Assembly (NCBI GenBank): GCA_963666175.2
Contig: CAXXTN010000007.1
Coordinates: forward strand, 15,041-79,040
From: Candidatus Poribacteria bacterium
GTDB lineage: Bacteria > Poribacteria > WGA-4E > WGA-3G
Length of the DNA: 64,000 bases
Reading direction: 5' to 3'
The position numbers were made by a program, and so were the translations under genes. The notes under the pieces were generated by a model. The model made no database searches. It saw only the letters and a list, made by a program, of their open reading frames with translations, and was not told the origin of the DNA. This document shows positions 10,852 to 63,907 of the stretch, in pieces. The stretch's first letter is position 1. Every line of letters starts with the position of its first letter.

Positions 10852-10935
10852 ATTATATCTACACTTTCTATCAACGGTAGGCGAGGTTTCCTAACCTCAC
10901 TTCAGCAATGTGTAGAATTAATTCAATAATTTACC
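10852..10935 (+). repeat. ~85-bp palindromic intergenic element, copy 2 (REP-like core GGTAGGCGAGGTTTCCTAACCTC)
   Basis: Aligns with the reverse complement of 3846-3926. It lies in the same orientation relative to the downstream gene (10992 +) as copy 1 does relative to the WD40 gene. Confidence 0.7.
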
Positions 10936-19399: not shown

Positions 19400-20722
19400 T
19401 TAAACAAACAATTCTTCAATTACACTACCATCATCTACGACACGAATTGGTCTTCCAGAACGCGACATGTTCTCTTCCTGATAATCAATGCCAAGTGCAA
19501 AGCAAAGTGAAGCAAACAAGTCAGGGACGGCTACCTTGCCAGAAACGACTTTAGTACCATCTTCATTCGTGCTGCCAACAACTTGTCCACCACGTACGCC
19601 ACCACCTGCTACGACAGCAGACCAACCATTCGGGTGGTGATCGCGTCCATCATTCATATTAATTTTCGGTGTGCGACCAAATTCACCAAGCCAAAGCACA
19701 ACTGTCTCATCAAGAAGATCACGTTCACTTAATTCTTTAATAAGCATAGCATAAGCCGGGTCAACAACATCAAGAAGGCCTTTTGTTCTTTCAAAGTTAT
19801 TTTCATGCGTATCCCAACCATCAAGTGTGATTTCAACAAACTTTACACCAGACTCAATAAGTCTTCGTGCCATCAGACAACCTTGTCCAAACTTGGTCTT
19901 ACCGTAAGCTTGCCGCACTTCTTCCGGTTCCTCATCAAGTTCAAATGCCTTGATTTTTGGGGAGTTAATCAACTCATCTGCTTTCTTGTATATGGCTTCG
20001 TGAGTCTCTGTACCAATACCAGATCGTTTGCTGATGAAATCTTTTTCCAGATTCTTAAGCATTTTGAGACGTTCACGGAAACGGTGTGTATCCATCTGTT
20101 TCGGATACTTAATATCTTCAACTTCTTCCATAGGGTTATTTACCACAAAAGGATCGTGTGATGCACCCAAAAACCCACCAGAATAGGTTGGAGAACTAAT
20201 ATTAACACATGCGGGGAGTTTAGACTCATCGTCATCAAGATAATATGAAGTCAATGACCCTAATGTAGGATGTCGTACAGCACCACCAGGTGCATAACCG
20301 GTATGTAACAAATATCGCGCCCGTTCATGATTACCTTCGCGGGATACCATCGACCGAATAATAGAAAGGTGGTGTGCTTGTTCTGCAAGGTTCGGTAAAT
20401 GCTCTGATATTTCTATACCCTTAACACTAGTAGGAATCGCTTTGAAAGGTCCACTATTTTTCTCCGATGGATCTTTCGGATCAAAAGTATCTAATTGACT
20501 TGGACCGCCACTCATAAACATTACGATACACTGTTTAGCGCGGGGTATCACTGATTCTAACTGTGCGTTTGCAGTAGTTCCAAAATGCTGCATCGCAACA
20601 AGTCCCAGAAAACTACTGACTCCGTATTTAAAGAAACTACGACGGGAAATTTCATTATGCCATATCTCAGGTGTGTCGTATTCGGGCACCCAAATTTCTG
20701 TTCTCATTCCTCTCTTCAGCAT
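19400..20722 (-). CDS. DUF1501 domain protein (sulfatase-fold, Tat-exported)
   Basis: Twin-arginine signal SRRSFFKYGV. DUF1501 hallmarks are present: MSGGPSQLDTFDPK, DGWDTHENN, GEFGRTP, GRDHHP. Confidence 0.85.
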   Translation of the reverse strand: MLKRGMRTEIWVPEYDTPEIWHNEISRRSFFKYGVSSFLGLVAMQHFGTTANAQLESVIPRAKQCIVMFMSGGPSQLDTFDPKDPSEKNSGPFKAIPTSVKGIEISEHLPNLAEQAHHLSIIRSMVSREGNHERARYLLHTGYAPGGAVRHPTLGSLTSYYLDDDESKLPACVNISSPTYSGGFLGASHDPFVVNNPMEEVEDIKYPKQMDTHRFRERLKMLKNLEKDFISKRSGIGTETHEAIYKKADELINSPKIKAFELDEEPEEVRQAYGKTKFGQGCLMARRLIESGVKFVEITLDGWDTHENNFERTKGLLDVVDPAYAMLIKELSERDLLDETVVLWLGEFGRTPKINMNDGRDHHPNGWSAVVAGGGVRGGQVVGSTNEDGTKVVSGKVAVPDLFASLCFALGIDYQEENMSRSGRPIRVVDDGSVIEELFV

Positions 20723-21567
20723 ATCTTAGGCAAGTAATATCACCTTCGAATGCATCTCCTTTATTTTTGTTACCCGCAACCAACGTCATCAGGAACACAC
20801 CTGCGGGAAAGATGTCAATTTGACGCAGTTTTGCACGCGGACTTTACAATTTTCGATCTGCTATGATTTTCAACGAACTAACAATTCCATTGGTAAAGAT
20901 TAAATATATAGTAACATAATAATTATACGTAATCAAGTAAAAAGTTTGAAAGTGTAATTTGGTGTGTGTAAAGTTTTTGCACAAGTCTAAATTTAGGTCT
21001 ATGTTGCGATGTATATAGAGAATGGTATCCATTCCAAATAGTCTTAAAATAAAATAGGAGAGGATACCAATAAGCCAATTTATCTCTTAATCTTCATTTG
21101 GTGTCAATTTAAGTGAAACACCTTTAACCATTAGTCACGTATGAAGATAAATCTATTAAAAGGGTAATCATAACCACCCCGGAACTTGTTGGAGCACTTT
21201 GTAAGCGCGATTGTCAAACCCGTAGGCGGGGAATCATGGCGAATACCATACGCGTATTCGCCAAAGGCATTCATACCGTTGATTTGTCGCTTTGTAAGCG
21301 CGATTGTCTTTGATCTCAAATTACCCAATTTATTACTTAATCTTCATACGGGACGATATGTGGGGTCAATGCGATAAGTTTTAACATATCGTCCCTAATG
21401 AAGATTAATTTATTAAACGGGTAATCTTAATCACCCCAAACTCCGTAGGCGCGCTTTGATGAAGATTAATTTATTAAACGGGTAATCTTAATCACGCCAA
21501 AACTTGTAGGAGCACTTTGTAAGTGTGCTTGTCCAACCCCTGTAGGAGCACTTTTTAAGCGCGATTG

Positions 21568-21831
21568 TCAACTTTTTCCACGCACTACACGCTTACACGC
21601 CAAATAATGCTTACGAGACGCACGAATCCGCCTGCCGAACTCACGAAGCAAACATTCATAAGGTGTATCAACTGCATTCGGAACACACCCGCGCGAAAGC
21701 TTACGAGACTCCCAATACCAACGATAATACGAACCAACACTCACACCCGCTTTTTCACATGCTAAACTCACAGAAGTACGCCTTAGCAACACAACCAGAT
21801 CAGCAATAACCCTTGTAGCAACCGCATTCAA
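21568..21831 (-). pseudogene. Remnant of an IS transposase N-terminal HTH ORF (IS3-orfA-like)
   Basis: This 87-aa ORF (...IADLVVLLRRTSVSLACEKAGVSVGSYYRWYWESRKL...) has the HTH pattern of IS3-type OrfA. No catalytic transposase ORF follows, and the downstream DNA is occupied by REP-like repeats. Confidence 0.4.
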
Positions 21832-22013
21832 CCCTCCTTTTTCGCGAAGGTTTTTATTATCATTTTTTCCAAAAACACCAAATTATAATGCAATTAATGC
21901 AAAATATTTCTTGCAAAATATTTTTATGGACACCATATTTTCAACCCAAAACATAACATAGAGTGTGTAAAGTTTTTGATGCAGATACAAACTTCTGTTT
22001 TCTTTAGTCGCGT

Positions 22014-22128
22014 ATGAAGTTTAATTTATTAAACGGGTAATTCTCATTTTCTCAAACACGGTAGGAGCGGTTTCCTAACCGCTCCGGACTTCTCAAGGAA
22101 ATTACCCGATTTATTTTTTAATCTTCAT
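22014..22128 (+). mobile_element. 115-bp MITE-like element (imperfect ~28-nt TIRs around a GTAGG-headed hairpin)
   Basis: Left end is atgaagtttaatttattaaacgggtaat and right end is attacccgatttattttttaatcttcat. The central hairpin is ggtaggagcggtttcctaaccgctcc. A ~105-nt core is identical by eye to the inverted copy at 63739-63853. Confidence 0.75.
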
Positions 22129-23106
22129 ACGGGACTAAAGAGTTTGAGGTTGTTCGTTTTCTATAAACATTCCATCCCTACGGGACTAAAGAAACAGAAA
22201 TTTATATCTCTGTGCCAAAAACTTTACACTCCCCCAATTACACAGGGTTATTTATAGTAAGACTTACAATTAATGAAACATATTGTCCCAATTGCAAATT
22301 TATAGAATGTCCGAGGCGCAATGAATTGCGCGACTACAAACGCGTTATTCTAAATGTAAAATGTATTGTTAATTTCAAATTTTACTATAGTTTTAGGTAT
22401 TTCTGCTGTATTTCATTACAAACGTTAATGGTTTTGAGATACGATTTAGCTTGTGAACACAACATGGTAGTAGGTACGCTCAGCGTGCCGTCCATACAGA
22501 TAGGATTACGGCACACGGAGTGTGCCTACTACTATGCATCGCTACAAGTCAACCCTAACTCTTAGTAAAACTCAACAACGTGCAATTTATAAAACTAAAT
22601 AACCCTGCCAATTACATCATACTGTTGATTTTTCCATAAGTTTCTGCTATACTGTGCATTTATAGTAGATTTCGAAATTGCTTGAATACTCTGCATAAGC
22701 GAGGTTAGGAACCTCCAAATCAAGGTTGAATACACTTATGGTATTCAACGCCTACTTGTAAATGTAAGAGACGCAATGTTGAAGATTAATTTATTGAACA
22801 GGTAATCTTACACATCCAAAACTTGTAGGCGCGCTTTGTAAGCGCGCAGGACTTCTATCTCAAATTACCCTATTTCTTTCTTAATCTTCATGAAGTTAAT
22901 ACCCAAGACGGTTGAGGCGGTTTCCTAACCGCTTTGGAACCCACAAGAAAGCTGACTGTGAAAGGTTTTAGCTCAAATTCGGTAGAATACGCGTATGATA
23001 TTCTGCATTGGTTAGGAAACCACACCTACTGTCTTGACATTTAGCATTTGTAGATAAACACAAGAAAAACCGAAAACGAATTAATCTTGTAAAAATGGTA
23101 TTTCTC

Positions 23107-23136
23107 TTTACAAACGTTAGGTAGTTATGTTAATAT
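23107..23136 (+). promoter_or_regulatory. Candidate sigma70-type promoter upstream of the PspA/AAA+ module
   Basis: TTTACA (23107-23112), 18-nt spacer, TAATAT (23131-23136). It lies about 100 nt upstream of the first gene. Sequence pattern only. Confidence 0.25.
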
Positions 23137-23239
23137 ATGTGAGGTAATTATAGCTAGAAATTATAGGTAATTAGGCTGAACAGCAACTATCAAAGTAGAT
23201 TTTTATACAGCTGCTCCAGATAATGACAGTGTATGCAAT

Positions 23240-24082
23240 TTGGTGATAAAGTTGATTGATAAGAAATTATTTCTTCAGAAATATCTACTCCACCTTATTA
23301 ACAATCCATTTACCATTTACCCATTTGCTGCGGGAGTACTTGGGGTTTTCGCTTCATGGGTTTTCAATTTAGAACCACAGATATTATATTTGTTTGCTGG
23401 TGCTGTCGTCGGTCTTGGGTTACCAATAGGGGCATTGATAACGAAGTGGACTTCTGGCACAGATGACATTGCAAAAAAGGTTCATGAGGAACTTCTTCAT
23501 GATGCACATCAAAAACAGGAAGAGGAACTGAACGCACTGCATCAGCAATTGCTGAAAGATGGTGATCAAAGAACAGAACAGATGCTTGAAGAACTGCGGA
23601 TGTTACACGAATCTTTTCAAGAAGAGGCAATGGATACAGGTTGGATGGCTTCTTTACCACTTACCGTAAGTGCTGAAATCGCGGGTAAAGTCTCAGATCT
23701 CTTCAATCAAGCAGTTCAATGTCTCAAAGACACTTTGAAGATGTATGAGAAATCAAAAGATTCAAAATTAGCGACCGTCAAACGGGTGCTTCAGCAACAC
23801 AGAGAGCAACAAATTGTTGATGTTCAGCAGACAATAGTTCAACTTACAAATCTATATGCTCGTGTAATAACGCTTAGTCCTGAAAGCAATGAGACTGAAC
23901 TCTCACGGCTTCGCACTGAACTTGATGAAAGCCTTGCATTTGCCAAGAAAGTTGACGAGCAAATACGAGAATCTACACCAAATATTGATGTTGATTTGTC
24001 TAATGTGGAAACTTCAATTGGAGAATCAACAATTACAACGCATCAGAATGTTGAATCTACGGAAGAAAGCAATTATCAGTGA
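23240..24082 (+). CDS. Membrane-anchored coiled-coil protein (two N-terminal TM helices plus ~200-aa helical region)
   Basis: The TM helices are FTIYPFAAGVLGVFASWVF and ILYLFAGAVVGLGLPIGALI. A charged heptad-like helical sequence follows. No in-frame ATG precedes the TM helices, so the start must be TTG (23240) or GTG (23243). Confidence 0.7.
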   Translation: MVIKLIDKKLFLQKYLLHLINNPFTIYPFAAGVLGVFASWVFNLEPQILYLFAGAVVGLGLPIGALITKWTSGTDDIAKKVHEELLHDAHQKQEEELNALHQQLLKDGDQRTEQMLEELRMLHESFQEEAMDTGWMASLPLTVSAEIAGKVSDLFNQAVQCLKDTLKMYEKSKDSKLATVKRVLQQHREQQIVDVQQTIVQLTNLYARVITLSPESNETELSRLRTELDESLAFAKKVDEQIRESTPNIDVDLSNVETSIGESTITTHQNVESTEESNYQ

Positions 24083-24124
24083 ATATGATTGATATGAATC
24101 CATTTTTAACACTGGAGGTAATCA

Positions 24125-24892
24125 ATGCAAAACGGAATCACGCGTTTATACAATGCTATCTGGTATACACAAGTTGGACGTGCACTTGAACAGAAGGATA
24201 TAGAAAAAACAGAAAAAGAATACATAGATATTACACATGATACTCTTGTTGTCGACTTTGATAAGAACCGTGAAGATACTCAAACCAGAAAACATGGTAA
24301 AAGCCTTTGGAGTAAATCTGAAGTTTTACCCGATTCCAAAGTTAACAGCAAAACATCCGGGATAGTAACTCAGAAAGTCCTTATAGATAATCTTGATGCT
24401 GTCAGACAGACTTATGAAGACATAATCAACGATAAAAGGAATAATATTCAACGATACAAACTTGCAATAGGACAACTCATTCCTCTTATAGAACAGAAAA
24501 AGAATTCACTGAAAAGTATTTTAGATGATATGGATAAGCTTGAAAAGTTGAAGAAGGCAGCAATTGCTAAGTCTAAAAACATTTCCTTAGAACTAAAAGA
24601 ATCTGGTTTATCAGATAGAGAGATAGAACGGCATCCAGACTATACACGATGCCTCAGTTCATATAATGATTTCGATTCTACCGTCAAGGAGAAAAACGTT
24701 CGTGTGGACGAACTTGAACAGGATATTGAACGTGCACAAGCAGATATTGAACATCATAAATCTAATATCACACACCTTCACCGTGATGTAGAAAAGATAA
24801 AAACAGAACAATCTGAAGCGATAGCAGACCTTATTACTGCTCGTGAAAAAGGGAAAATTAATGAAGTTTTATCGGATATCAAAGTAGAATGA
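24125..24892 (+). CDS. PspA/IM30-family (ESCRT-III fold) protein, divergent paralog with an N-terminal insertion
   Basis: The N-terminus MQNGITRLYNAIWYT..GRA and residues ~90-255 align by eye with the downstream paralog. Roughly two-thirds of residues are identical over the stretch I aligned. A ~60-aa insert follows the first helix. Confidence 0.75.
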   Translation: MQNGITRLYNAIWYTQVGRALEQKDIEKTEKEYIDITHDTLVVDFDKNREDTQTRKHGKSLWSKSEVLPDSKVNSKTSGIVTQKVLIDNLDAVRQTYEDIINDKRNNIQRYKLAIGQLIPLIEQKKNSLKSILDDMDKLEKLKKAAIAKSKNISLELKESGLSDREIERHPDYTRCLSSYNDFDSTVKEKNVRVDELEQDIERAQADIEHHKSNITHLHRDVEKIKTEQSEAIADLITAREKGKINEVLSDIKVE

Positions 24893-24953
24893 TATTAAAT
24901 CAAGAAATAACAAATTGTGAATAATCAATTCATTTCATATAGGAGGATTTACT

Positions 24954-25790
24954 ATGGCAAACGGATTCACCCGTTTTTTCAAAGCGATCTGGTATACACT
25001 TACTGGTCGCGCACATGATCAAGCTGACAAATTGATGGAAGACCCTCATGCTATCCGCGGAGCTTATGAGGGTATTATCCGTGATAAACAAGACAATATC
25101 CAACAATACAAGCAAGCAATTGGCCAACTAATTGCACTTGTTGAACAGAAAAAGAACTCACTCAAGGCACTTACCGATGATATAGACAGACTCGAAAAGA
25201 TGAAGGCAGGTGCAATTGCTAAGGCAAAAAGTACGGCTGCAGAATTGCAGCAGGCTGGTACACCAGATGAAGAGATCAAACAACATCCAGAATATGTCCG
25301 ATGTGTTGGCTCATATAACGATTTTCATTCAACTTTGGAGGAGAAAAACGCAAGAATCTCCGAACTTGAAGCAGATATTGATAGGGCACAAAATGATATT
25401 GAAGCACACAAACTTCAAATTACTGGACTTGCCCGTGATCTTGATAAAATTAAAACAGAACAATCTGAGGCCGTTGCTGATCTCATTACTGCCAACCAAC
25501 AAGAGGAAATTGCAGATATGTTGTCTGGTATTAGCACAGATGGAACTTCTGCAGAATTGTCACGTATGCGTGAAATTCGTGAAAAAGCAAAAGGACGTGC
25601 AGTCGTAGCACAAGAACTCGCTGGTACAGACACACGTGCAGAAGAAGAGGAATTTCTTGCTGCAGCAAGGACTACTTCTGCTTCCGATGAGTTTGATTCG
25701 CTAATTTTCGGAGCACAACAAACCGATACACCAGCACAAACTGATGAGGCAACGAGCGAATCACAGAGTGATTCAGAACTGCCGTTATAA
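24954..25790 (+). CDS. pspA: PspA/IM30-family (ESCRT-III fold) protein
   Basis: MANGFTRFFKAIWYTLTGRAHDQADKLMEDPHAIRGAYEGIIRDKQDNIQQYKQAIGQLIA follows the PspA pattern (M.(I/L)F.R....+......L+K.EDP...+...I.+M...L......A+A). It has long coiled-coil helices and an acidic C-terminal tail. Confidence 0.8.
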   Translation: MANGFTRFFKAIWYTLTGRAHDQADKLMEDPHAIRGAYEGIIRDKQDNIQQYKQAIGQLIALVEQKKNSLKALTDDIDRLEKMKAGAIAKAKSTAAELQQAGTPDEEIKQHPEYVRCVGSYNDFHSTLEEKNARISELEADIDRAQNDIEAHKLQITGLARDLDKIKTEQSEAVADLITANQQEEIADMLSGISTDGTSAELSRMREIREKAKGRAVVAQELAGTDTRAEEEEFLAAARTTSASDEFDSLIFGAQQTDTPAQTDEATSESQSDSELPL

Positions 25791-25882
25791 TTCTCTAAAA
25801 TAAGTTAATTCATATCTGCGGGTAATCCTGCCTATTCAATACATACTGTATTTGGGGCATAGATACCCGCTTGATATGTTAC

Positions 25883-26030
25883 TATAACCTAAGTTGCCAC
25901 CATTAGTTGGAGTGGTTTCCAACCACGATTGTTATGAAGAGGCACTAAAATATGCAGAATTCCTTTGTTTCTTCGTTTGACAAAGTAATTCGATGATTAA
26001 TATTCAGTAGGTAGCAACTTAGGTTACTAT
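25883..26030. repeat. ~150-bp MITE/REP-like element inside the PspA/AAA+ gene cluster
   Basis: The TIRs are tataacctaagttgccacc (25883-25901) and ggtagcaacttaggttacta (to ~26029). The internal unit ccattagttggagtggtttccaaccacgatt recurs at 47.2 kb and 54.7 kb. Confidence 0.65.
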
Positions 26031-26053
26031 ATCAAATATAAGAGAGATTGTTA

Positions 26054-27856
26054 ATGAACGTAAACACATGGCATCAGGAGAATACACCGAGTTGTTGGGA
26101 AAGGGTTTTAGAAAGGCTTAAGTCGTTTGAGGCACAAGTACACCACATAAAAGAAACAAAAAGGCTATCAGCGATACCGCCTCAAATTCTAGATTCTTTC
26201 TACCAGTTTCACGATGACTTGATTGCTGAAACAAGTGATACTTTGCGTTCATATCAAAATACTCAGTCTTTAGACTCTCTACATACAGTATTGGATAATT
26301 CATTCGTTGAGGCAATTTGGTTATCACTTGACCAATATCCCGAACTTGTCAATCACAAAGATATAGAAAACCTTGACACTGCAGGTTCCAAAATCTTCAC
26401 ACGCTTTTCCCCTGATGCCCCAACAGATGTCGCTGATAGAGAGAAATTAAAATCTAAGATTCAACAGATTTTTAAATTATCTTCGGATTCATTAGAAAAA
26501 CTGACAAGTAAACTTGGTAATCGGACTGCACCATTACAACACAGGCATCAAATTATGAGATGTCTACAGACACGATTCAATCTGGTATCTGGAAATCCTG
26601 AATTGGATTGCGATGCACTCAGACTGTTTCAAGAATTATATCCCACTGCCCCTTTTGATGTCGGGGAAGTAAAACTGATAAAAACCTGTTCCGCACTTTA
26701 TTTCTGTTTGCCTTCTAAAGTGAAGGAGATTGACACAGAATCTTCAGGTAATATAAAGTCTGAAGAAACAGATAAATCTCATAATGTAAAGTCAGATAAT
26801 AAATTAGGATACGCGCAATTTCTCAGAAGGATTTGGCAGGTTGAACCTTTCGCACACTTTCCAGTCTTTGGTACATTTAACGCAGAGGAACTTGATCCCA
26901 GTTTCCGGTCAATGATTGCTGATGACACTGGTTTATCTATTGATTTGGTAACAACGACACTCACACGGATGATCGGCTTTCTACCCATAGAGGAACTGGA
27001 TAAATACCTTATTCATGACACTTGGGGACATCAATGGCAAGAGAGTTTACTTGATTTTGAGGATCTTTATACAGAATTATCTCTTTTTGATCGTCCACTG
27101 TCTGTCATGGAATCTGCTTCTGTCTTAGGTGAACATACTACATTCGGAGATGCGTTTCTCAAAACTGCTTCGGGGAAAATACAACTGGATCCGGAAATTC
27201 TTACGAAATTTATAGATTCTGAGTTGTATGAACGGTCTATAGTCGCATTTACACCTATTTTAGCTGAAATGTTAGCGGATGTTGTAGAATACAAATTCCT
27301 AAAACTACATCCTGAACAGGTTGACTTAATGCCAAGTTCGTCCCTACTTAAGGACTATCCAAGCAAACTGGATTTAACGCTTGAGGATCTACACAACTGT
27401 TTTGAACGCGCATCTGAAGCATTTCAAACGTGGGTCGACTCAGATGAAGCAAAAAATAGATTACATAATGAGATATGCGAAAAATTTGATATTCAAGATA
27501 GTGAAAGTAACTACAAAGAATTGAATGACATTCTTGAAAATGCCGTCGTGATTTGTAAAGAACGACTTGAAAGGTTTTATCAACCTGAATGGTATTGGGA
27601 AAGAACCGAAGACAACAGTCTGAAACTCAACGCATTTAGTTTCGCCGCACTCAACTTTCTCCGTATTCATACCGCTTTCTTACATACATATCAAAGACTT
27701 TCACAGATTGAAACTTCGTATGGTTTTATGGATGCACTTGTTCTGGCAATGGGAGCTTTCTTTGAAAAGGAACCGCAACGACATATTTGGCAACTTGACA
27801 GTTTTTTGACTGAAGGTTTTCTACCACGATGGGAAATGTTTGCTCAGGCAAATTAA
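26054..27856 (+). CDS. Hypothetical ~600-aa mostly helical protein (no recognised family)
   Basis: Long ORF with coding-like composition. I prefer the ATG at 26054 (MNVNTWHQ); the track starts at TTG 26048. The only notable motif is YLIHDTWGHQWQE. The stop lies 26 nt before the AAA+ gene. Confidence 0.7.
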   Translation: MNVNTWHQENTPSCWERVLERLKSFEAQVHHIKETKRLSAIPPQILDSFYQFHDDLIAETSDTLRSYQNTQSLDSLHTVLDNSFVEAIWLSLDQYPELVNHKDIENLDTAGSKIFTRFSPDAPTDVADREKLKSKIQQIFKLSSDSLEKLTSKLGNRTAPLQHRHQIMRCLQTRFNLVSGNPELDCDALRLFQELYPTAPFDVGEVKLIKTCSALYFCLPSKVKEIDTESSGNIKSEETDKSHNVKSDNKLGYAQFLRRIWQVEPFAHFPVFGTFNAEELDPSFRSMIADDTGLSIDLVTTTLTRMIGFLPIEELDKYLIHDTWGHQWQESLLDFEDLYTELSLFDRPLSVMESASVLGEHTTFGDAFLKTASGKIQLDPEILTKFIDSELYERSIVAFTPILAEMLADVVEYKFLKLHPEQVDLMPSSSLLKDYPSKLDLTLEDLHNCFERASEAFQTWVDSDEAKNRLHNEICEKFDIQDSESNYKELNDILENAVVICKERLERFYQPEWYWERTEDNSLKLNAFSFAALNFLRIHTAFLHTYQRLSQIETSYGFMDALVLAMGAFFEKEPQRHIWQLDSFLTEGFLPRWEMFAQAN

Positions 27857-27882
27857 CACAAAAGACTGATCTTTCTTGAAGG

Positions 27883-29739
27883 GTGGAGGACAAGACGATC
27901 GCTATCAAAGACCCTACCTACAAATTCCGAACAGAAGCTGGATTACTAATAAATTCCGGCACATCGCGTAGCATCGTACTTCACGGAAATATACACGACA
28001 TTTTTTATGTTTCCGATGAAGATACCGAGGATTATATCCCACTCGTGTCATTTCTGACACATAGCTGGGATATTTCTGGTTATATCTTAATAGTCTACGA
28101 ACTCAATGGACCTCTCCGTTTTTTACATACAAGCGATCGTGAAAGGGTTAAGAACGCTTTCAATTCTTGGAGAGGAACTGCTGAGCCTTCCAAATCCAAA
28201 ACTCCCAGCCATTTCGCAGAACTAGGTAGTATAGAAGAGGCAGGAAGCAAGGCAGATAAAACTGAGGACACATTTGAACAATATCTTAACGAAGCCATCG
28301 GTAGTCCCACATTGGCTCTTGAACTTCTCCGACAGTTCTGTTTGATTTCTCGTTTTACGAATGTCAATGGTGATCGTTTATTGGATGAAAAACTACTCAT
28401 CCTTATAGAAGCAACTGATATGTTATTGCCAGAAGGTGAGATACGAACTTTAAGTTTGGCTGACAGACATAGGGTTAGTATCATTCAAGATTGGGTTTCT
28501 GATTCTGAGTTCATGAAAGGAACAGATACCGTTGTCTTTATCTCTGAATCTAAGAGTCTAATTAACTCCAGAATCACACGCCTTCCACAAGTAGTTGATG
28601 TAGAAATCCAATCTCCAGATGTGGAAGCACGGAAACACTTTATTTCATGGTTTAATAGAACGCAAAAAGAAAAGAAAAAAGAACTTAATCTATGGGGGAG
28701 TCAATCTCAACTTGCAGTCCTAACTGCGGGATTATCATTACAAGCATTACGGCAGATGCTTGTATCTGCTTGTTATTCTGGTGAGAAACTTCAACCTGAT
28801 ATTGTAATTGAGAAAGTATCAGAATTCATACAAGCAGAATTAGGTGAAGATGTCGTTGAGTTTAAAAAACCTGGACATACACTTACAGATATAGTTGGTA
28901 ATAACAAACTGATTGAGTTTTTGAGATCACAGATTATACCGCGCATCACTTCTACTGGAAAGGATTCAATATCTGGACTAAGTGTCTGTGGACCTATTGG
29001 CAGCGGAAAGACATTCATCTTTGAGGGACTTGCGGGGGAATTGGACATACCTGTTTTAGTTCTGAAGAACATCCGTAGTATGTGGTTTGGTCAAACAGAT
29101 GTCATTTTTGAAAGACTCAGACGGCTACTGATGGCACTTGTAAATGTGCTTATTTTTGTTGATGAAGCAGATACACAATTCGGCGATGTTGGCAAGGATG
29201 CACATGCAACGGAACGGAGACTTACTGGTAAGATTCAAGCGATGATGTCCGATCCGCAACTACGTGGGAATATCACATGGCTATTGATGACTGCGCGTAT
29301 CTATAATCTCTCGCCAGACCTACGTCGAGAGGGTAGGGTTGGTGATATTGTTATTCCAGTTCTTGATCCTTCGGGAGAAGATCGGAAAACTTTCCTTCAA
29401 TGGACATTGAGCAATGTCTACACTGAAACAATATCGGACGAGGCATTTGAACTCTTGTTATCGCACACTGAAGGGTATTCTGCTGCGAGTTTTGCATCAC
29501 TTCGTGCAGACCTTGAGGCTGCAAAAAATCGTCAAGGTGAGTTAACTGTTGACGAGATCATTGATGTCATATCAGATAGAATTCTACCCAATATCGGTCC
29601 AATTCGACGTTATCAAACATTGCAAGCGTTTCTGAATTGCACACGCAAATCTCTACTTCCAGTGGATTATTCACCAGAAACAAGGGAATCATGGTTAGAA
29701 CAGATTGCACAATTGGAAGTGATGGGGATTAGAGGGTAA
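27883..29739 (+). CDS. Tandem AAA+ ATPase: degenerate N-terminal AAA-like domain plus active classical-AAA C-terminal domain
   Basis: GTG start. D2 has Walker A GPIGSGKT (28990-29013) and Walker B LIFVDEAD (29149-29172). Its SRH-like segment is LLMTARIYNLSPDLRREGRVGDIVIPVLDPSGEDRKTF (compare ATNRP..LDPALLRPGRFD..I...LPD...R). D1 shows the same layout with both motifs destroyed (SIVLHGNIHDIF; LILIEATDML). Confidence 0.85.
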   Translation: MEDKTIAIKDPTYKFRTEAGLLINSGTSRSIVLHGNIHDIFYVSDEDTEDYIPLVSFLTHSWDISGYILIVYELNGPLRFLHTSDRERVKNAFNSWRGTAEPSKSKTPSHFAELGSIEEAGSKADKTEDTFEQYLNEAIGSPTLALELLRQFCLISRFTNVNGDRLLDEKLLILIEATDMLLPEGEIRTLSLADRHRVSIIQDWVSDSEFMKGTDTVVFISESKSLINSRITRLPQVVDVEIQSPDVEARKHFISWFNRTQKEKKKELNLWGSQSQLAVLTAGLSLQALRQMLVSACYSGEKLQPDIVIEKVSEFIQAELGEDVVEFKKPGHTLTDIVGNNKLIEFLRSQIIPRITSTGKDSISGLSVCGPIGSGKTFIFEGLAGELDIPVLVLKNIRSMWFGQTDVIFERLRRLLMALVNVLIFVDEADTQFGDVGKDAHATERRLTGKIQAMMSDPQLRGNITWLLMTARIYNLSPDLRREGRVGDIVIPVLDPSGEDRKTFLQWTLSNVYTETISDEAFELLLSHTEGYSAASFASLRADLEAAKNRQGELTVDEIIDVISDRILPNIGPIRRYQTLQAFLNCTRKSLLPVDYSPETRESWLEQIAQLEVMGIRG

Positions 29740-29775
29740 AATAAATTCAATCAAATTCACATTATACCTCCACCA

Positions 29776-32736
29776 TTAATCTATAGCATTAGCAATTAAC
29801 ACAAGGTCTTGTATATTGACAACACCATCTCCGTTCACATCGGCACGATTCAATGTTCCTGTTTTACCAAAACTGGTAGCAACTTTTACCAAATCCAATA
29901 TGTCTACTACACCATCGTCATTTATATCAACTTGGATTATACTATCTTTCTCAATTTTGTGCCATTCTTGTACCACGTTTCCTAATACATCAACGACTTG
30001 GAGTCCAACAGATGTCTGAGGTGTAGCATACGAATCGGATACAATGAATTCAATCGTTTCGGTTTCACTGTCCAATCTTTTACATCCTATCACCTTTGTT
30101 CCTTTTATAGGGTCCTCAAATGCTGAAGGTGTAAGTAGCTGTGCTTGATGTAACCCATCAGAGTCCGACACCTCAAAACGGAAACGGACTGTATTGCGTG
30201 AAGTGTAATGTGGTAATAAACGGAGGATATTTGTTGTCACATCATCATCGTTTTGAGTTGCGTTGAATGCCGGATGTACACTCAAAAAATCAGCAGAACA
30301 TGTAGTGAGTTTTTCAATATAACCACTACTCGCAGACATTAGATTCGGTTCCCGAAAATCGTGATATAAGCCAAGAGCGTGTCCAAGTTCGTGAGCAACA
30401 ATGCGAAAACTGAAACAGTCATCTACGGCAGGAAACATCGCAACTCCTCCGCCAGATGGATGGACACCACCCAACCCGCACACATTGATGCCAAAAATGT
30501 TCCCACTCATCTCCAGAAAAACAACAAGAATGTTTTTTGATATGTCAAATCTTGGACTGATTTCCTCAGTAATTTTTATAAATGCTTGGTCTCTATAGTA
30601 TGCTTCTTCGTATCTTCCTACAATATGATGCACAACTAAGTTGTCATCTGCATCAGTTTCATAAGTAAATGTGTTTATACCAAAACCGTGATCTTTCATC
30701 TCTTGAGCATAGAATGATTTGACATTCACCATGACTCTATCTACCTGCGTATTTATTCTTTGTTGAAGTAGACGGTCCTTTGGACGAAAGTAAATAATCC
30801 GTACATTCGTATTGTTTTTTCTTTTTTGTTGAAGTTGTGAAATCCCTTCCAGCAATTCTTGATTTTGTTCGCGCAATCTCCCGAAATCCCATAGGATGAC
30901 TGTACCATCTTGGCTTGCGCTCGTAAGTGTTGTGCCATCTGGAGAAAACGCAACGGAACGCACTGTGTGGGTATGTCCCGTTAGCGTATCAACGGAATAT
31001 CCAGTCTTAGTATCCCACAATCGCACAGTTCCGTCCTCCGCACCGCTTGCAATAGTACTGCCATCTGGTGAAAACGCAACTGATCGCACACTGTAAGTAT
31101 GTCCTACTAACGCAGCTTTAGTCTCTGTAGTCTTCGCATCCCATAATCGTACAGTACTGTCTCGACTTCCACTGGCAATAGTATTGCCATCTGGGGAAAT
31201 GGCAACACTAAAAACCCTATCGGAGTGGCCTCTAAACGTTGCTTTAAGTTGCTTCGTTTCTACATCCCACAAACGTACTGTGTTATCTCTACTACCAGTT
31301 GCGATTGTATTTCCATCATCAGAATATGCAACACTTAGAATTCTCCAAGTATGTCCCGGTAACGCAGCAATAAGTTGCCATGTTTTAGCATCCCATATAC
31401 GTAGCATTTTATCTTCTCCGCCACTTGCAAATGTGTTTCCATCTGGTGAGAACGCAACACTATAAACAGCAAAACTATCTCCCATTAGTGTAGATTTGAG
31501 ATATTGACTTTCCGTATCCCACAACAGAATTTCGTTGTCACGATAGCCACCACTACTGACAATTGTTTTTGCGTCAGGTGAAAACGCCATTGATACAACG
31601 CGAAATGGATGTGCGGTAAAGGAAGATAAAAGTCGACCTGTTTCCACATGCCACAATTGTATTTTGCCATCTTCACTTCCATTTGCAAGAAGAGCACCAT
31701 CTTTTGAATAGGCAATAGAGATTTTGCTGTTGGTATAGTCCATTAAAGTTACGGAGGGTTCCCATGTGTTGACATCCCACACTATGACCGTCCCATCTTC
31801 ACTTCCACTGGCAAAGATTGTGCCATCAAGAGAAAATGATACCGAGGTCACACCTTTTGTATGTTCAATGAGCGTAGTGACAAGATAACCCGTTTCTGCA
31901 TCCCACAAACGTACTGTATTGTCACTACTGCCACTTAATATCCATCTACTATCAGGAGAATATGTGATTGATGTTACTGCATCTGTATGTCCTTTTAGTG
32001 TGTTGATTAATTCTCCTGTATCAGCATTCCATATACGTACCGTATTATCACTACTACCACTTGCAAACCATCTGCCATTCGGAGAAAATGCTACAGAATG
32101 TACCCATCCGGTATGATCTGTAAGCGTAAAGAGAAGCTGTCCAATATGAGCATCCCAGACTCGTACCGAACTGTCTTCACTACCACTGATAAGTCTTCCA
32201 CCATCAGGTGAGTAGGCAATGGAAGTCACCCAGCGCGTGTGTCCAGAAAGAGTTCCAATGAGTTGGTTTGTACGAACATCCCATAGGCGTATTGTATTAT
32301 CCCAACTTCCACTTGCAATTGTACTCTCAACAGGTGAATAATCCACTGTACTCACTCTGTCGGTGTGTGCAGAGAGGATTGCAATCCGTTCACCTGTTGC
32401 AGCATTCCACAAACGGACGGTGCCATCTTCATTTGCGCTTGCCAGAACGCTACCGTCTTGTGAAAACGCGGCACTTGATGTAGAACCCGCATATCCTTTG
32501 AGTAAAGGTAGTTCATCACCGGTGTCTATATTGTAGCTCCATATCCCGGCAGAAGTAGCGATGATAAGCCGTGTCATGTCTGGAGTAAAAGTGATTCCAT
32601 TTATTCTACCTTTCCCTAAGCGCACTTTCGCATTTTCAGGAAGATACGAATATGGACCGTTCTGTGCAAAACTCAAATGTGAAATAGTTATTGAAATGAG
32701 ACATAGGCTTGATACGAGAATAAGAGATTTTCTCAT
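29776..32736 (-). CDS. Secreted multi-WD40 protein fused to a metzincin-type zinc metallopeptidase domain and a C-terminal dockerin pair
   Basis: 986 aa with a signal peptide. It has about 13 WD40 units. HELGHALGLYHD fits the HExxHxxGxxH consensus and is encoded around 30361-30396. The C-terminus is DINDDGVVDILDLVKV / DVNGDGVVNIQDLVLIA. No T9SS-type CTD is present. Confidence 0.85.
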   Translation of the reverse strand: MRKSLILVSSLCLISITISHLSFAQNGPYSYLPENAKVRLGKGRINGITFTPDMTRLIIATSAGIWSYNIDTGDELPLLKGYAGSTSSAAFSQDGSVLASANEDGTVRLWNAATGERIAILSAHTDRVSTVDYSPVESTIASGSWDNTIRLWDVRTNQLIGTLSGHTRWVTSIAYSPDGGRLISGSEDSSVRVWDAHIGQLLFTLTDHTGWVHSVAFSPNGRWFASGSSDNTVRIWNADTGELINTLKGHTDAVTSITYSPDSRWILSGSSDNTVRLWDAETGYLVTTLIEHTKGVTSVSFSLDGTIFASGSEDGTVIVWDVNTWEPSVTLMDYTNSKISIAYSKDGALLANGSEDGKIQLWHVETGRLLSSFTAHPFRVVSMAFSPDAKTIVSSGGYRDNEILLWDTESQYLKSTLMGDSFAVYSVAFSPDGNTFASGGEDKMLRIWDAKTWQLIAALPGHTWRILSVAYSDDGNTIATGSRDNTVRLWDVETKQLKATFRGHSDRVFSVAISPDGNTIASGSRDSTVRLWDAKTTETKAALVGHTYSVRSVAFSPDGSTIASGAEDGTVRLWDTKTGYSVDTLTGHTHTVRSVAFSPDGTTLTSASQDGTVILWDFGRLREQNQELLEGISQLQQKRKNNTNVRIIYFRPKDRLLQQRINTQVDRVMVNVKSFYAQEMKDHGFGINTFTYETDADDNLVVHHIVGRYEEAYYRDQAFIKITEEISPRFDISKNILVVFLEMSGNIFGINVCGLGGVHPSGGGVAMFPAVDDCFSFRIVAHELGHALGLYHDFREPNLMSASSGYIEKLTTCSADFLSVHPAFNATQNDDDVTTNILRLLPHYTSRNTVRFRFEVSDSDGLHQAQLLTPSAFEDPIKGTKVIGCKRLDSETETIEFIVSDSYATPQTSVGLQVVDVLGNVVQEWHKIEKDSIIQVDINDDGVVDILDLVKVATSFGKTGTLNRADVNGDGVVNIQDLVLIANAID

Positions 32737-32882: not shown

Positions 32883-34982
32883 TTACTTCAGGATTAGCAT
32901 TTTCCGGGTTGCAGAAAATTTTCCTGCTGTGATTCTATAGAAATAGATTCCACTAGCAACAGACTCACCTATATCATTTGTGCCATCCCAATACGCAGCT
33001 TGACTACGAGTTTGATATAAGCCAGCAGATTGATGACCAAGGTCAAATTGACGCACAATACTACCATGTGCATCATAAATGCTGATTTGCACCTCACTCG
33101 GTTTTGCTAAACGATAAGGTATCCATGTCTCAGGATTAAATGGGTTTGGGTAATTTGGTAGTAATGCTGATGATTGCGGAATTAAGGTTGCTAAGAGTTG
33201 TTCAAGTACCTGAATCCCTCGGTCATACGTTCGCTTGGGTTGATGTACAGACCTATCAATCGGCAAAGGTGACAATTGCTTTGAAACCTTTAACGACTGT
33301 TTCATCTGCACAGTATTAAGCTCCTGCTTAGCAAGCTGCAGCCACTGCTGTACTTGTGATGCGTGTAGTCCTTTAGCTGATGGGGCAGCAAGATTGCCAT
33401 TCCCAAAGCCGTTCGCTACTATGACCAGATCTTGAAAATTCACCAATCCATCACCATTGAGGTCGGCTTCCAGGGCACTTGAATCTCCGAATTTAGATGC
33501 GACCAATACTAAATCTAATATGTTGATAACATTGTCGTCGTTCAAGTCGCCAATCAGTGGCAGCCGATAGCCGGGAGTGCCAAGACTCATTTCTTCTGAC
33601 ACACCATCATCATATCCGAGACCATCTTTGTAGCCACTTTCATCCCATGCTTCTGCTTGATATCCGATAATATCAGGTTTTGACCGATACCATGCGACAT
33701 CAGTAGTTAGTAGAGGTGCAGTTACGGGTTTCACAGGACGATTCGGAAAATAATTACCAACGGTATCTTCATACCCACCATCAGCACTTTGCAGGAATAA
33801 CGCAAAATCAGTTGGTGGTAATCTGAAGGTTTCATCAATGACATAACTAACAGAACCGTCTCCAGGATCTGCTAATAAACTATCAGATGAATTCGGATCT
33901 GTATTTACAATCAACATCACCTCACCAGCAGGAATCGTTTCTCCTGTGGGAAATGTAATTGTAGTCATTCCTGAACCCGCGTGAATTGTCATCTGCCAAC
34001 CAGATAGGTCAATATCTTTATCACTAATATTTCGGAGCTCCAACCAATCATGTACATCGTTTGCCCCGTTATACAATTCGTTAAAGATAATTCTATCCAT
34101 AGAAAGCAGCGGCACCAGTTGATCAATTTCAACACTACTGACAGATGGCACCGCATCAACTTCTCCGAAACCTACTCCATGCACAATAAGAAGACAGTCA
34201 TTATTTGAGAGGGTATAACCTGGAGGACAACTTGTATCAGTTGAATTGGTAACATTAATAGTAACACTGATTGAATCCTCACTATTTGTCTGTTCTCCAG
34301 CGAACACATTAACAGTTACCGAATAGGAATTCTTAACTTCATAATCAAGCGCGGCTTCTGTTTTCAACTGCCCTGTACTTCCATCAATCTTAAATGAACT
34401 CGCATCTGTGCCACTAAGTGTGTACTTATCAAGATTGCTATTAAAGTTACTTGCGGCAACAGGATTACCGATGTTTGTATTAGCAGCCGTATTTTCGGCT
34501 ATAGAGCGGGTTGTACTATCTCCATCTGAAAACTGCAAGGATACATCAGTGACATTGATGGTGACAGAGATTGTATCTGTATCGGTGTAATTAGTAACTA
34601 TCGGACCAGTAATTGAATCTGAAAGAGGACTAAGACGGCCTTTTTGTGCCGCAACCGTTAATGAATAAGAAGACTTAGTTTCATAATCAAGTACAGTATT
34701 CGTTTTCAATTGTCCTGTACTACTATTAATAGTAAAGGAACTTGCATCGGTTCCCCTAATGACATATCGTCCTAATGAGGTACTAAAATTATGTGCTGAT
34801 ACAGCACTACCAACATTCGTATTTGTTGAAACATTTTCTGCAACGGATCGGGTAGTACTATCATCATGATAATGACCGGAGTCACCGCTATGTGCAAAAC
34901 AAGTACCCACAATACTCCAACACAGAAAAATGCCTACAAATACTTTTGCATAGACTCTTCTTTTTACAATCGTATGCTTCAT
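32883..34982 (-). CDS. Secreted cadherin-repeat / lamin-tail-domain protein with dockerin pair and T9SS-type CTD
   Basis: Two cadherin-like units (F.I...TGQLKT...LDYE.K.SYS+TV). An LTD-like segment follows (IIFNELYNG..DVHDWLELRNISDKDIDLSGWQM). Then come DLNDDNVINILDLVLV / DLNGDGLVNFQDLVIV and NYPNPFNPETWIPYRL...FSATRKMLILK. Confidence 0.8.
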   Translation of the reverse strand: MKHTIVKRRVYAKVFVGIFLCWSIVGTCFAHSGDSGHYHDDSTTRSVAENVSTNTNVGSAVSAHNFSTSLGRYVIRGTDASSFTINSSTGQLKTNTVLDYETKSSYSLTVAAQKGRLSPLSDSITGPIVTNYTDTDTISVTINVTDVSLQFSDGDSTTRSIAENTAANTNIGNPVAASNFNSNLDKYTLSGTDASSFKIDGSTGQLKTEAALDYEVKNSYSVTVNVFAGEQTNSEDSISVTINVTNSTDTSCPPGYTLSNNDCLLIVHGVGFGEVDAVPSVSSVEIDQLVPLLSMDRIIFNELYNGANDVHDWLELRNISDKDIDLSGWQMTIHAGSGMTTITFPTGETIPAGEVMLIVNTDPNSSDSLLADPGDGSVSYVIDETFRLPPTDFALFLQSADGGYEDTVGNYFPNRPVKPVTAPLLTTDVAWYRSKPDIIGYQAEAWDESGYKDGLGYDDGVSEEMSLGTPGYRLPLIGDLNDDNVINILDLVLVASKFGDSSALEADLNGDGLVNFQDLVIVANGFGNGNLAAPSAKGLHASQVQQWLQLAKQELNTVQMKQSLKVSKQLSPLPIDRSVHQPKRTYDRGIQVLEQLLATLIPQSSALLPNYPNPFNPETWIPYRLAKPSEVQISIYDAHGSIVRQFDLGHQSAGLYQTRSQAAYWDGTNDIGESVASGIYFYRITAGKFSATRKMLILK

Positions 34983-35224: not shown

Positions 35225-36376
35225 TTATATCAGTAAGCTAACCACATCACCACTTGCAGCGGAACGGTAGCCAGCACAAATAATCTCAATGGAGTGCGCA
35301 GCAAATTCAGCATTCATTTCACTTTCAACACCATTTTCAATACAGTCAACAAACGCACTGAACTCTCGTTGTCCGTCATTTTCACTGACCACATCTATCC
35401 AATGTTGTTTTGGTCGCATTCCAATTTCTGATTGTGTGCTGCTCCACATTCCCATCGGATCAAGTGGGTGTGGAGTTGGTGGTTCAAATGCAGGTTCTGC
35501 AGCAAACACCTCCAATCTATTTGATGAAGCATCAAATGTCAATGTAGAATCACTTCCAACAAGATGTACCTTCCTAATCCCACCTTGTGGATGACTCTGC
35601 CACCCATATCGTCCTGCAGCAATCGTACCAGTAATCCCACCTTCTAATGATAATACCATAGCACCGAAATCTTCAACATCACAACCATCATGTTCTTTGA
35701 AAAAATAATTTCCAGTACCACAGAATACTTGCTCCACTCGTTTACCTGTCAACCAGTTCACCATTGACACAGCATAAACACCGATATCAAACATCTCTGG
35801 TTTTGCTTCCACGAAGCTATACCTTTCTAAACTCGGGTATTGTGTTCGTTTTTGTCCAACAGGTGCACTTCCCGGATGTCCTTTTGCAAACATAACATCA
35901 CAATGAATTGCTTGAAGTTCCCCAATGTGTCCACTATCCAGTGCTTGTTTCACCGTCCGTGCCCACGAACTATGTATGTTGCTGAACATCTGTGTCTTTA
36001 CACCACTATTTGTAACAGCATCAACGATTTGTTGTACATCTTTTGCATTCAGTGCCATCGGTTTATCAAGATAGATATGCTTTCCTGCTTCTGCACATTT
36101 CGTCCCAACACGACCACGCCGTTCAACTTCAGTGCATAAACTAACAATATGCACATCTTCACGCGCTAAAGCTTCATCAAGATTAGGAATGAATGGTAAC
36201 TGTCGTTCTTTTGCAAGTGATTGGGCTAATTCAATCCGTTCCACAGGTGCATCCTGTTCATCTGCAATTGCTATGAGTTGACATCGGGAATCATTGGCAA
36301 ATAATACCGAATAATTTTCCTGGTGTGTCCGATGTCCACCGAGTAATAGGACTCCGTATTTTCCATTTGTTGCCAT
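35225..36376 (-). CDS. Gfo/Idh/MocA family oxidoreductase
   Basis: Contains a Rossmann-like N-terminus, the motif GKHIYLDKPM and a C-terminal alpha/beta dimerisation-type region. Confidence 0.8.
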   Translation of the reverse strand: MATNGKYGVLLLGGHRTHQENYSVLFANDSRCQLIAIADEQDAPVERIELAQSLAKERQLPFIPNLDEALAREDVHIVSLCTEVERRGRVGTKCAEAGKHIYLDKPMALNAKDVQQIVDAVTNSGVKTQMFSNIHSSWARTVKQALDSGHIGELQAIHCDVMFAKGHPGSAPVGQKRTQYPSLERYSFVEAKPEMFDIGVYAVSMVNWLTGKRVEQVFCGTGNYFFKEHDGCDVEDFGAMVLSLEGGITGTIAAGRYGWQSHPQGGIRKVHLVGSDSTLTFDASSNRLEVFAAEPAFEPPTPHPLDPMGMWSSTQSEIGMRPKQHWIDVVSENDGQREFSAFVDCIENGVESEMNAEFAAHSIEIICAGYRSAASGDVVSLLI

Positions 36377-63442: not shown

Positions 63443-63907
63443 GGGTGCGTAAAGTTTTTGCACAAACTGCTCATTCTCCATTGTAGGGCGGGGTCTCTGT
63501 GTCCCGCCGCAACTGATTTCATAAGAGATTGCGGGTACAGGACACATAGGTGTTGTAAACATAAGGAAATATTGTTAATATGAACCATACTCTTCAGTCC
63601 CGTAGGGACGATATGTTTATAGAAAAAGAGTTCCCATGCCTTTTTAGTCCCGTAGGGACGATATGTTTATTTTTCTATGTCGTTCCTATGGAACTCAAGA
63701 TAGGGTGATAACGTCTTTCTATAGACATATCGTCCCTAATGAAGATTAAAAAATAAATCGGGTAATTTCCTTGAGAAGTCCGGAGCGGTTAGGAAACCGC
63801 TCCTACCGTGTTTGAGAAAATGAGAATTACCCGTTTAATAAATTAATCCTCATACGGGACTAAAGAGAACAAAAGTTTGTACCTTTGTACAAAAACTTTA
63901 CACACCC
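63443..63907. mobile_element. ~465-bp composite element bounded by GGGTGCGTAAAGTTTTTGCACA / TGTACAAAAACTTTACACACCC inverted repeats
   Basis: The TIRs are seen directly. The interior holds a GTAGG hairpin at 63483, gtcccgtagggacgatatgtttat units at 63595-63737, and a complete 115-bp MITE at 63739-63853. Confidence 0.7.

Follow-up and report, generated by a model that had tools for sequence, protein, structure and literature searches.

How do bacteria turn over the ESCRT-III-like polymers formed by PspA and its relatives? A 2025 review concluded that a Vps4-like ATPase appears to be absent in bacteria and that turnover of PspA and Vipp1 must work in another way (PMC7619361). An operon of an uncultured Candidatus Poribacteria bacterium bears on this question. 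It lies in a stretch of 64,000 nucleotides (nt), here termed the window (assembly GCA_963666175.2, contig CAXXTN010000007.1, positions 15,041 to 79,040), and consists of five forward-strand genes: g1 (23240-24082; 280 amino acids, aa), g2 (24125-24892; 255 aa), g3 (24954-25790; 278 aa), g4 (open reading frame (ORF) 26048-27856, 602 aa; 600 aa in its public form, from the ATG at 26054) and g5 (27883-29739; 618 aa). In order, the gaps between them are 42, 61, 257 and 26 nt. An earlier annotation, the original prediction, had proposed that these genes form a module resembling ESCRT-III and Vps4, and its ORF coordinates and gaps were reproduced exactly. Our results suggest that a conserved operon of PspA and an AAA+ ATPase, as found here, is a concrete candidate for a system that uses ATP to recycle ESCRT-III-like polymers in bacteria. 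We propose, from gene sequences and gene order, that g5 threads and recycles PspA polymers anchored by g1, a reading that we believe about as strongly as we doubt.

Linkage of a PspA subfamily with a tandem AAA+ ATPase

A search over representative sequences for homologues of g5, the ATPase, returned 236 clusters at E<1e-30, and full-length two-domain relatives were found down to 25-30% identity. A genome scan anchored on the ATPase, with a profile from a 14-sequence alignment, gave 80 loci in which all ORFs were searched with phmmer and hmmsearch, and a reverse scan of metagenomes, anchored on the PspA subfamily of g3, gave 37 loci with enough downstream sequence. A g3-like PspA gene was present upstream and on the same strand in 67 of the 80 ATPase-anchored loci; for about 6 of the remaining 13, the contig is too short for the gene to be visible. 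The ATPase was present downstream in 32 of the 37 PspA-anchored loci. The linkage therefore holds both ways. The original prediction had made its case dependent on the gene order being found in related genomes, and the core order (g1, PspA, ATPase) recurs in Poribacteria and in metagenome-assembled genomes (MAGs) whose labels name nine or more further phyla or candidate divisions. By MAG label, the PspA-ATPase loci beyond Poribacteria belong to Planctomycetota, Verrucomicrobiota, Lentisphaerota and Hydrogenedentota, with further labels of Acidobacteriota (Thermoanaerobaculia), Nitrospiraceae, Desulforapulum, Proteobacteria and CSSED10-310.

Three distinct architectures were seen. Architecture A is a bare PspA-ATPase dyad with gaps of 10-126 nt, present at more than 25 genome loci from many Poribacteria, Nitrospiraceae, Thermoanaerobaculia, Hydrogenedentales and several Planctomycetota. 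Architecture B has the order g1, PspA, solute-binding protein, permease, ATP-binding cassette (ABC) ATPase, AAA+ and is carried by Verrucomicrobiota, Lentisphaerota/Victivallales, Planctomycetota, Hydrogenedentota, CSSED10-310, Desulforapulum and a proteobacterium; it also occurs in some Poribacteria, there with an extra DUF481 protein. The importer of architecture B is of the NitT/TauT type (SsuA/'urea'-like solute-binding protein, TIGR03427, E~1e-46; TauC-like BPD_transp_1 permease; ABC_tran), and it lies between PspA and the ATPase at 17 non-Poribacteria genome loci, five Poribacteria loci and most metagenome loci. Architecture C, the type found in the window, comprises g1, then PspA in two to four copies with only the last one full-length, g4 and the AAA+ gene, and accounts for 12 of the 80 genome loci. 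Hence the five-gene arrangement to which the original prediction drew attention is conserved in its core order, whereas the exact version, with g4 and an extra PspA, is restricted to a subset of Poribacteria. In other lineages the place of g4 is that of the importer, as at most g1-carrying loci outside Poribacteria, and we infer that the importer is ancestral and was replaced by g4 in one Poribacteria lineage. As a separate observation, the DUF481 protein (PF04338, E~1e-10) is found in the PspA-ABC-AAA+ operon of one Poribacteria lineage (loci L025, 7136-7948; L027, 5196-6086; L028; L032). If DUF481 is an outer-membrane beta-barrel family, as we take it to be, this hints at communication between the module and the outer membrane.

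The frequent presence of an importer raises the possibility that the ATPase acts on membrane proteins, either as an extractor similar to Msp1, FtsH or Pex1/6 or as an assembly chaperone for the importer, g1 or other envelope complexes, with PspA merely sealing or stabilising the membrane. The importer's position between PspA and the ATPase is consistent with such a role, as are the presence of Msp1 among the solved AAA proteins similar to g5 and the existence of some ATPase loci without PspA. However, the minimal recurrent unit is the dyad of architecture A, which contains no membrane-protein gene; the operon in the window contains no transporter; and hydropathy analysis of g5 detected no transmembrane (TM) segment or membrane-targeting feature. 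We regard this alternative as unlikely, but as one that deserves to be taken seriously.

A role in anti-phage defence or abortive infection, with the AAA+ protein as a sensor or effector that triggers membrane disruption, would draw on weak P-loop matches to IetA/IteA in PADLOC and NCBIfam (E=1e-4; 4 of 43 g5-family members) and on the repeats that flank the locus. These matches span only the generic Walker A region, however, and fall well short of a family assignment. A partner protease or nuclease is missing; PADLOC gave zero matches for g1 and g4 and, for g2 and g3, nothing beyond coiled-coil noise; and the order is conserved across phyla with housekeeping-like neighbours, unlike a defence island. 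A defence function is scarcely credible on these grounds.

The class to which this module may belong has been described before. Ravi et al. (mSystems 2024, PMC11237479; preprint 2020; Text S2.2 and Table S3) observed PspA beside an 'inactive classical AAA + classical AAA' protein, with exemplars from Clostridium sp. BNL1100 (AEY64321.1/AEY64320.1) and from the OGG56892.1 locus of Candidatus Handelsmanbacteria. They noted a neighbourhood with a membrane-anchored divergent Snf7 protein and other helical proteins, and proposed ATP-dependent membrane remodelling. The original prediction was thus correct in recalling surveys with PspA beside two-domain AAA+ ATPases, and its statement that the module is experimentally uncharacterised agrees with the outcome of our literature search. 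We would assign the window's module to this class by its architecture, compared with the exemplars as they are described: its PspA adjoins a two-domain AAA+ protein with an inactive N-terminal copy, and a membrane-anchored helical partner is present. It differs in having g4 and not a transporter, in having an extra truncated PspA and in its gene order, which is PspA, solute-binding protein, TM protein, ABC, TM-Snf7, AAA in Handelsmanbacteria versus g1, PspA, ..., AAA in the window. As the class had already been described by Ravi et al., the window represents a variant of a known, uncharacterised module. What is new beyond that survey is the quantification of the linkage in both directions, the distinction of three architectures, a candidate recognition motif at the C-terminus of PspA and the apparent replacement of the importer by the orphan g4 in Poribacteria.

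The ATPase, its candidate substrate and a proposed mechanism

The g5 protein can be classified as a tandem AAA+ ATPase of the classical clade, with a degenerate first domain (D1; 27883-28860, from hhalign and the family alignment) and a second domain whose motor motifs are intact (D2; 28885-29739; PF00004, E=6.9e-14, residues 368-488). No family member has a Walker A motif in D1, where a conserved G-N..D-L-F is found instead, and in g5 the DEAD of Walker B is replaced by IEATD. An hhalign comparison of the N-terminal and C-terminal halves of the family gave a probability of 96.7% (E=4.5e-10) over residues 170-320, from the Walker B strand to the lid. D1 has no Walker A and yet aligns to D2; g5 is therefore read as a tandem AAA+ protein with a dead D1 and a live D2. 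D2 has a Walker A motif GPIGSGKT (28990-29013), a pore loop 1 of R-S-M-W-F-G-Q-T (29074-29097), a Walker B motif VDEAD with D427 and E428 (29161-29166), a lid motif GYSAASF and a second region of homology (SRH) from T470 to G487 (29290-29343; MTAR...DLRREGR) with two arginines, R482 and R485. Alanine occupies the sensor-1 asparagine position, and the neighbouring Thr470 is conserved. Across the family G370, G373, G375 and K376 are invariant and D427, E428 and R485 are near-invariant. Both Walker motifs and an SRH had been recognised by the original prediction; its reading of the SRH as P-G-R does not stand, as the motif is R-E-G-R. Its placement of the protein among the classical AAA ATPases is borne out by matches to PF00004 in 43 of 43 g5-family members. 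A family-specific C-terminal extension (R..Q.L.A...CT...LLP) follows D2. The best source-named matches of g5 are labelled Candidatus Poribacteria.

Membership of the classical AAA clade does not imply a Vps4-like protein, and on this point the original prediction went further than the data allow. Neither MIT (PF04212) nor Vps4_C (PF09336) was detected in g5 or in the 43 family members, there are two AAA domains, and the score of g5 against the CdvC equivalog (NF041006) is 30.6 bits versus a cutoff of 650. The scores against CDC48 (TIGR01243; 41.3 versus a cutoff of 802.65, from a single matched stretch) and PAN (29.8) are similarly low. Within NCBIfam, CDC48 is matched by 38 of the 43 family members (best 1e-27), CdvC by 26 (2e-13), PAN by 19 (3e-25) and FtsH by 15. 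Against solved structures the per-domain scores of g5 are 37.9 bits for Cdc48 D1, 36.7 for katanin, 35.3 for PAN and 34.8 for Msp1, and Vps4 is not among the best 60 matches. By these comparisons g5 and Vps4 are not orthologues, and g5 resembles Cdc48, katanin, PAN and Msp1 to much the same degree.

The state of the two domains also bears on the possibility that the ATPase is a holdase or assembly factor, which keeps PspA soluble or loads it onto g1 and the membrane, in a manner comparable to PspF with PspA or Hsp70 with VIPP1. A dead D1 ring could act as a binding platform, and HSP70B-CDJ2 both assembles and disassembles VIPP1 oligomers. In E. coli, PspA is held by an AAA+ protein, PspF (PMC7619361). 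However, D2 retains all elements of a processive translocase (the aromatic pore loop, the Walker B glutamate and both arginine fingers), so unfolding or extraction fits better than static binding, and g5 has no DNA-binding domain. Thus, a holding or loading function seems to us rather improbable.

The presumed substrate, g3, is taken to be a divergent full-length PspA/IM30 protein of the ESCRT-III superfamily, an assignment with modest support. It matches PF04012 (PspA_IM30) with E=1.5e-8 and 34.9 bits (gathering cutoff 33.9) over profile positions 3-206 of 220, and its best matches among solved structures are Vipp1/PspA (2e-4), with the alignment in register from 'EDP', where helix alpha1 begins. 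Its predicted N-terminal amphipathic helix alpha0 carries a conserved M-F-G-A-I-x-R-W-x-K-A-x-G-Y-L-L-T-G, followed by (E/N)(D/N)P, in register with Vipp1; the hydrophobic moment of this helix is above the protein average and is not extreme. It is conceivable that the PspA label is mistaken for g3 and g2 and that both are merely coiled-coil proteins of a generic kind, in which case their adjacency to the ATPase would have no ESCRT-III meaning. The score of g3 is only 1 bit over the Pfam cutoff, there are many spurious coiled-coil matches (SMC, Rad50, LmuB), and the family profile reaches only E~0.01 against the PDB. By contrast, the match covers nearly the whole PspA model; Vipp1/PspA supplies 7 of the 20 PDB matches of the family profile and four of the top five; the amphipathic helix and the 'EDP' lie in register with Vipp1; PF04012 is matched (E<1e-3) by 15 of 41 g3-family members and any other family by at most 2; and an independent survey classed such neighbours as PspA (PMC11237479). 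We therefore think a misassignment of this kind very unlikely. The original prediction had called both g2 and g3 PspA/IM30 paralogs and had allowed that both might miss the PspA/IM30 profiles. This is upheld for g3, which passes the PF04012 gathering score; g2 itself has no Pfam match and is placed by its 59% identity to g3 (over 170 aa), and it is a truncated derivative rather than a full PspA.

Full-length members of the PspA subfamily share more than the alpha0 sequence (MFGAI.RW.KA.GYLLTG). They also have a segment after alpha5 (ELAGTD...QE.EFL.YA....EFD.LIGLA) and an acidic linker that terminates in [LIV]-P-x(1-2)-COOH. In g3 the conserved acidic tail occupies 25629-25787 and its last residues are E-L-P-L (25776-25787). 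Of the full-length copies, all 79 from metagenomes and 64 of 66 from genomes have this C-terminus; 14 of 16 short PspA paralogs lack it. We hypothesise that the tail is a docking or threading handle for the ATPase, analogous to MIM tails. The motif was also considered as a marker of ATPase presence and was discarded as non-discriminating, the tail being retained in five loci with no nearby ATPase.

The product of g1 is the proposed membrane anchor or nucleator for PspA. Hydropathy predicts TM helices at residues 24-42 and 47-69 (nt 23309-23446), and the cytoplasmic part has about five helices in an AlphaFold2 (AF2) model of low confidence (pLDDT 58.6), for which the Foldseek matches (designed helical repeats, BAR, IncA; E>0.018) were not significant. 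Two motifs of the g1 family, LD.L...L..DGDPRTE..L.DLR.L and EL.RLR.ELD.SL, are conserved across phyla. Homologues of g1 lie directly 5' of the PspA gene at 30 genome loci and at 51 of the 60 metagenome loci with enough upstream sequence, typically with a gap of 0-80 nt. No Pfam family was assigned to g1 and there were zero Snf7 or PspA Pfam matches across 23 members; hhalign of the g1 family with the PspA family gave a probability of 1.7%, and the g1-family profile gave only noise against the PDB.

Taken in order, the mechanism that we propose would begin with g1, which may anchor or nucleate PspA polymers at the inner membrane, on its cytoplasmic side. A g5 hexamer would engage a PspA subunit, perhaps via the acidic tail ending in [LIV]-P-x-COOH, and thread it through the D2 pore at the expense of ATP; extraction of subunits would then remodel or recycle the polymer. 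The end result would be that of Vps4 acting on ESCRT-III, with a motor that is Cdc48-like and a recognition device other than MIT-MIM. Tail-less PspA copies such as g2 may co-polymerise and, since the ATPase could not grip them, may serve as caps or modulators.

Several points weigh against this mechanism. Gene linkage alone does not identify the substrate of an ATPase, and our literature search gave no experimental work on any member of the PspA-tandem-AAA+ module and no paper joining Poribacteria and PspA. About eight ATPase loci with adequate flanking sequence have no PspA nearby; pure polymer recycling does not explain the frequent partnership with an ABC importer; and the PspA call on g3 rests on the weak scores given above, at the Pfam cutoff and against the PDB. 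The C-terminal tail is retained in five metagenome loci that have no ATPase within 5-7 kb and, hence, may serve another partner.

A bolder version of the proposal is that g1, PspA and the AAA+ protein constitute a true bacterial counterpart of ESCRT-III/Vps4, namely, a membrane-anchored polymer whose turnover depends on an independently recruited Cdc48-like translocase that reads the [LIV]-P-x C-terminus. The system would be widespread in the Planctomycetes-Verrucomicrobia-Chlamydiae (PVC) group, Poribacteria and allies, lineages noted for internal membranes, and would have been rewired in Poribacteria to an enzyme-like g4 and tail-less PspA caps. We put this version forward tentatively and judge the chances to lie somewhat against it. 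If the operon does recycle PspA polymers with ATP, polymers of the ESCRT-III type were joined to classical AAA+ unfoldases on more than one occasion or earlier than has been assumed, and the field gains a minimal two- or three-protein system to reconstitute. The module class offers a direct experimental handle on the turnover of bacterial ESCRT-III-like polymers, and the pairing of PspA with a two-ring AAA+ motor, seen in sponge-symbiont Poribacteria and widespread beyond them, could explain how PspA membrane-repair polymers are recycled in bacteria.

Comparison with ESCRT-III/Vps4, Cdc48 and Psp systems

The window's module resembles ESCRT-III/Vps4 (CdvB/CdvC) in that an ESCRT-III-superfamily protein is encoded beside a classical AAA+ ATPase with an aromatic pore loop, as far as can be read from the genes alone, and in that the conserved C-terminal tail of g3 could play the role of a MIM. 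Unlike Vps4 and CdvC, g5 has no MIT domain, no beta-domain or C-terminal helix (PF09336), two AAA domains and a dead D1, and the polymer partner in the window belongs to the PspA branch, not the Snf7 branch. The tandem arrangement is that of Cdc48, p97 and VAT; the S-M-W-F-G of D2 is identical to that of Cdc48 D2 (SMWFGESE), and Cdc48-type proteins have the best per-domain similarity to g5 in both the PDB and NCBIfam. However, no double-psi-barrel N-domain was detected in g5, its D1 is far more degenerate, its C-terminal extension is specific to the family, and its score of 41 bits compares with an 803-bit cutoff. Pex1/6, like g5, combines a dead first ring with a working second ring.

Parallels can also be drawn with stress-response systems built around PspA. 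As with LiaI-LiaH in Bacillus and PspB/PspC-PspA in E. coli, a gene for a small membrane protein, the likely recruiter, lies directly 5' of that for the PspA homologue, and as with PspF-PspA in E. coli, an AAA+ protein is genetically tied to PspA. The individual proteins differ: g1 shows no sequence relationship to LiaI, PspB or PspC (no Pfam match), and g5, unlike PspF, is a translocase of the classical clade without a sigma-54 interaction motif or a helix-turn-helix. Indeed, searches of Pfam and NCBIfam gave no match to PspB, PspC or PspF among the five proteins, as the original prediction had noted, and the genes on either side are unrelated and run in the opposite direction.

g2, g4 and the DNA around the operon

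As its alignment to g3 indicates, g2 is a truncated paralog of g3 and not a second complete PspA. The 59% identity over 170 aa is accompanied by similarity over the first 25 aa; g2 retains helix alpha0 and the region from the hairpin to alpha4, has about 60 extra aa inserted behind alpha0, and ends short of alpha5, with no C-terminal tail. Short extra PspA copies of this kind occur only at the g4-type Poribacteria loci and in three close Poribacteria relatives without g4. The insertion after alpha0 in short paralogs resembles an internal duplication of 'ADRLMENPEAVR.AYEDI' (L002, 3784-4542; L004, 4250-5032; window, 24125-24892), which suggests that unequal recombination has occurred repeatedly among the arrayed PspA genes.

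The 600-aa product of g4 is soluble and mostly helical, and was assigned to no Pfam, NCBIfam or PADLOC family; a weak Pfam match to terpene synthases (E=0.009) was dismissed. Only 204 homologues were found, and all those with a source name are labelled Poribacteria. Eleven of the 12 genome loci with g4 are titled Candidatus Poribacteria and one is an 'uncultured bacterium' MAG (L031). An AF2 model (pLDDT 78, pTM 0.77) had no Foldseek match in the PDB or BFVD. A cluster of invariant residues rich in His, Asp and Glu (IHDTWGHQWQE, ELYER, AE.LADVVE) is probably a metal or catalytic site. One Poribacteria genome has a 1392-aa ORF between g4 and the ATPase (L011; 597-2471, 3060-7238, 7980-9818), so the adjacency of these two genes is not absolute.

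The gap between g3 and g4, which is 263 nt if g4 starts at the ATG of its public form, contains an inverted-repeat element of 164 nt (25874-26037; inverted repeat I12) with 28-nt arms (25874-25901 and 26010-26037, 79% complementary). Between the arms, at 25912-25926, lies a hairpin like the core of the window's dispersed repeats. As related Poribacteria have only 33-215 nt between g3 and g4, the suggestion of the original prediction that a repeat insertion had inflated this gap is plausible. A sigma-70-like match by consensus (TTGACA-16 nt-AATATT, 25977-26004) lies inside this element, ahead of g4, so g4 and g5 might have transcripts separate from those of g1 to g3 as well. A terminator scan, which gives consensus-level matches only, found no clear terminator downstream of g5, and there were zero Rfam matches for structured RNA across 20500-30500.

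The operon is set apart from its neighbours, as had been described. Upstream, a spacer of about 2.5 kb (20723-23239), rich in repeats (direct and inverted families D1-D5 and I1-I17) and poor in genes, parts g1 from a divergent gene on the reverse strand (19400-20722). Dispersed repeats resembling miniature inverted-repeat transposable elements fill the intergenic DNA of the window, in this spacer and also at 10885, 47146, 47348, 48141 and 63787-63853. A 28-mer, ATGAAGATTAATTTATTAAACGGGTAAT, has 6 copies in the window versus 0 expected, and a hairpin core, GGTTTCCTAACC, has 8 versus 0.8 expected; copies often form inverted pairs.

Downstream, a convergent reverse-strand gene (29776-32736) lies 36 nt past the g5 stop. 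Its translation, of 986 aa, contains many WD40 repeats, followed by an HExxH zinc-metalloprotease-like motif (HELGHALGLYHD) and dockerin-like repeats at the C-terminus. In related Poribacteria a gene of about 383 aa lies directly 3' of the ATPase; its counterpart in the window is at 35225-36376, and the WD40 gene and the gene after it therefore look inserted in the window. Also on the reverse strand, 32883-34982 encodes a protein of 699 aa that, as judged by its translation, looks secreted and has cadherin-like repeats, dockerin-like repeats and a C-terminus like a sorting domain.

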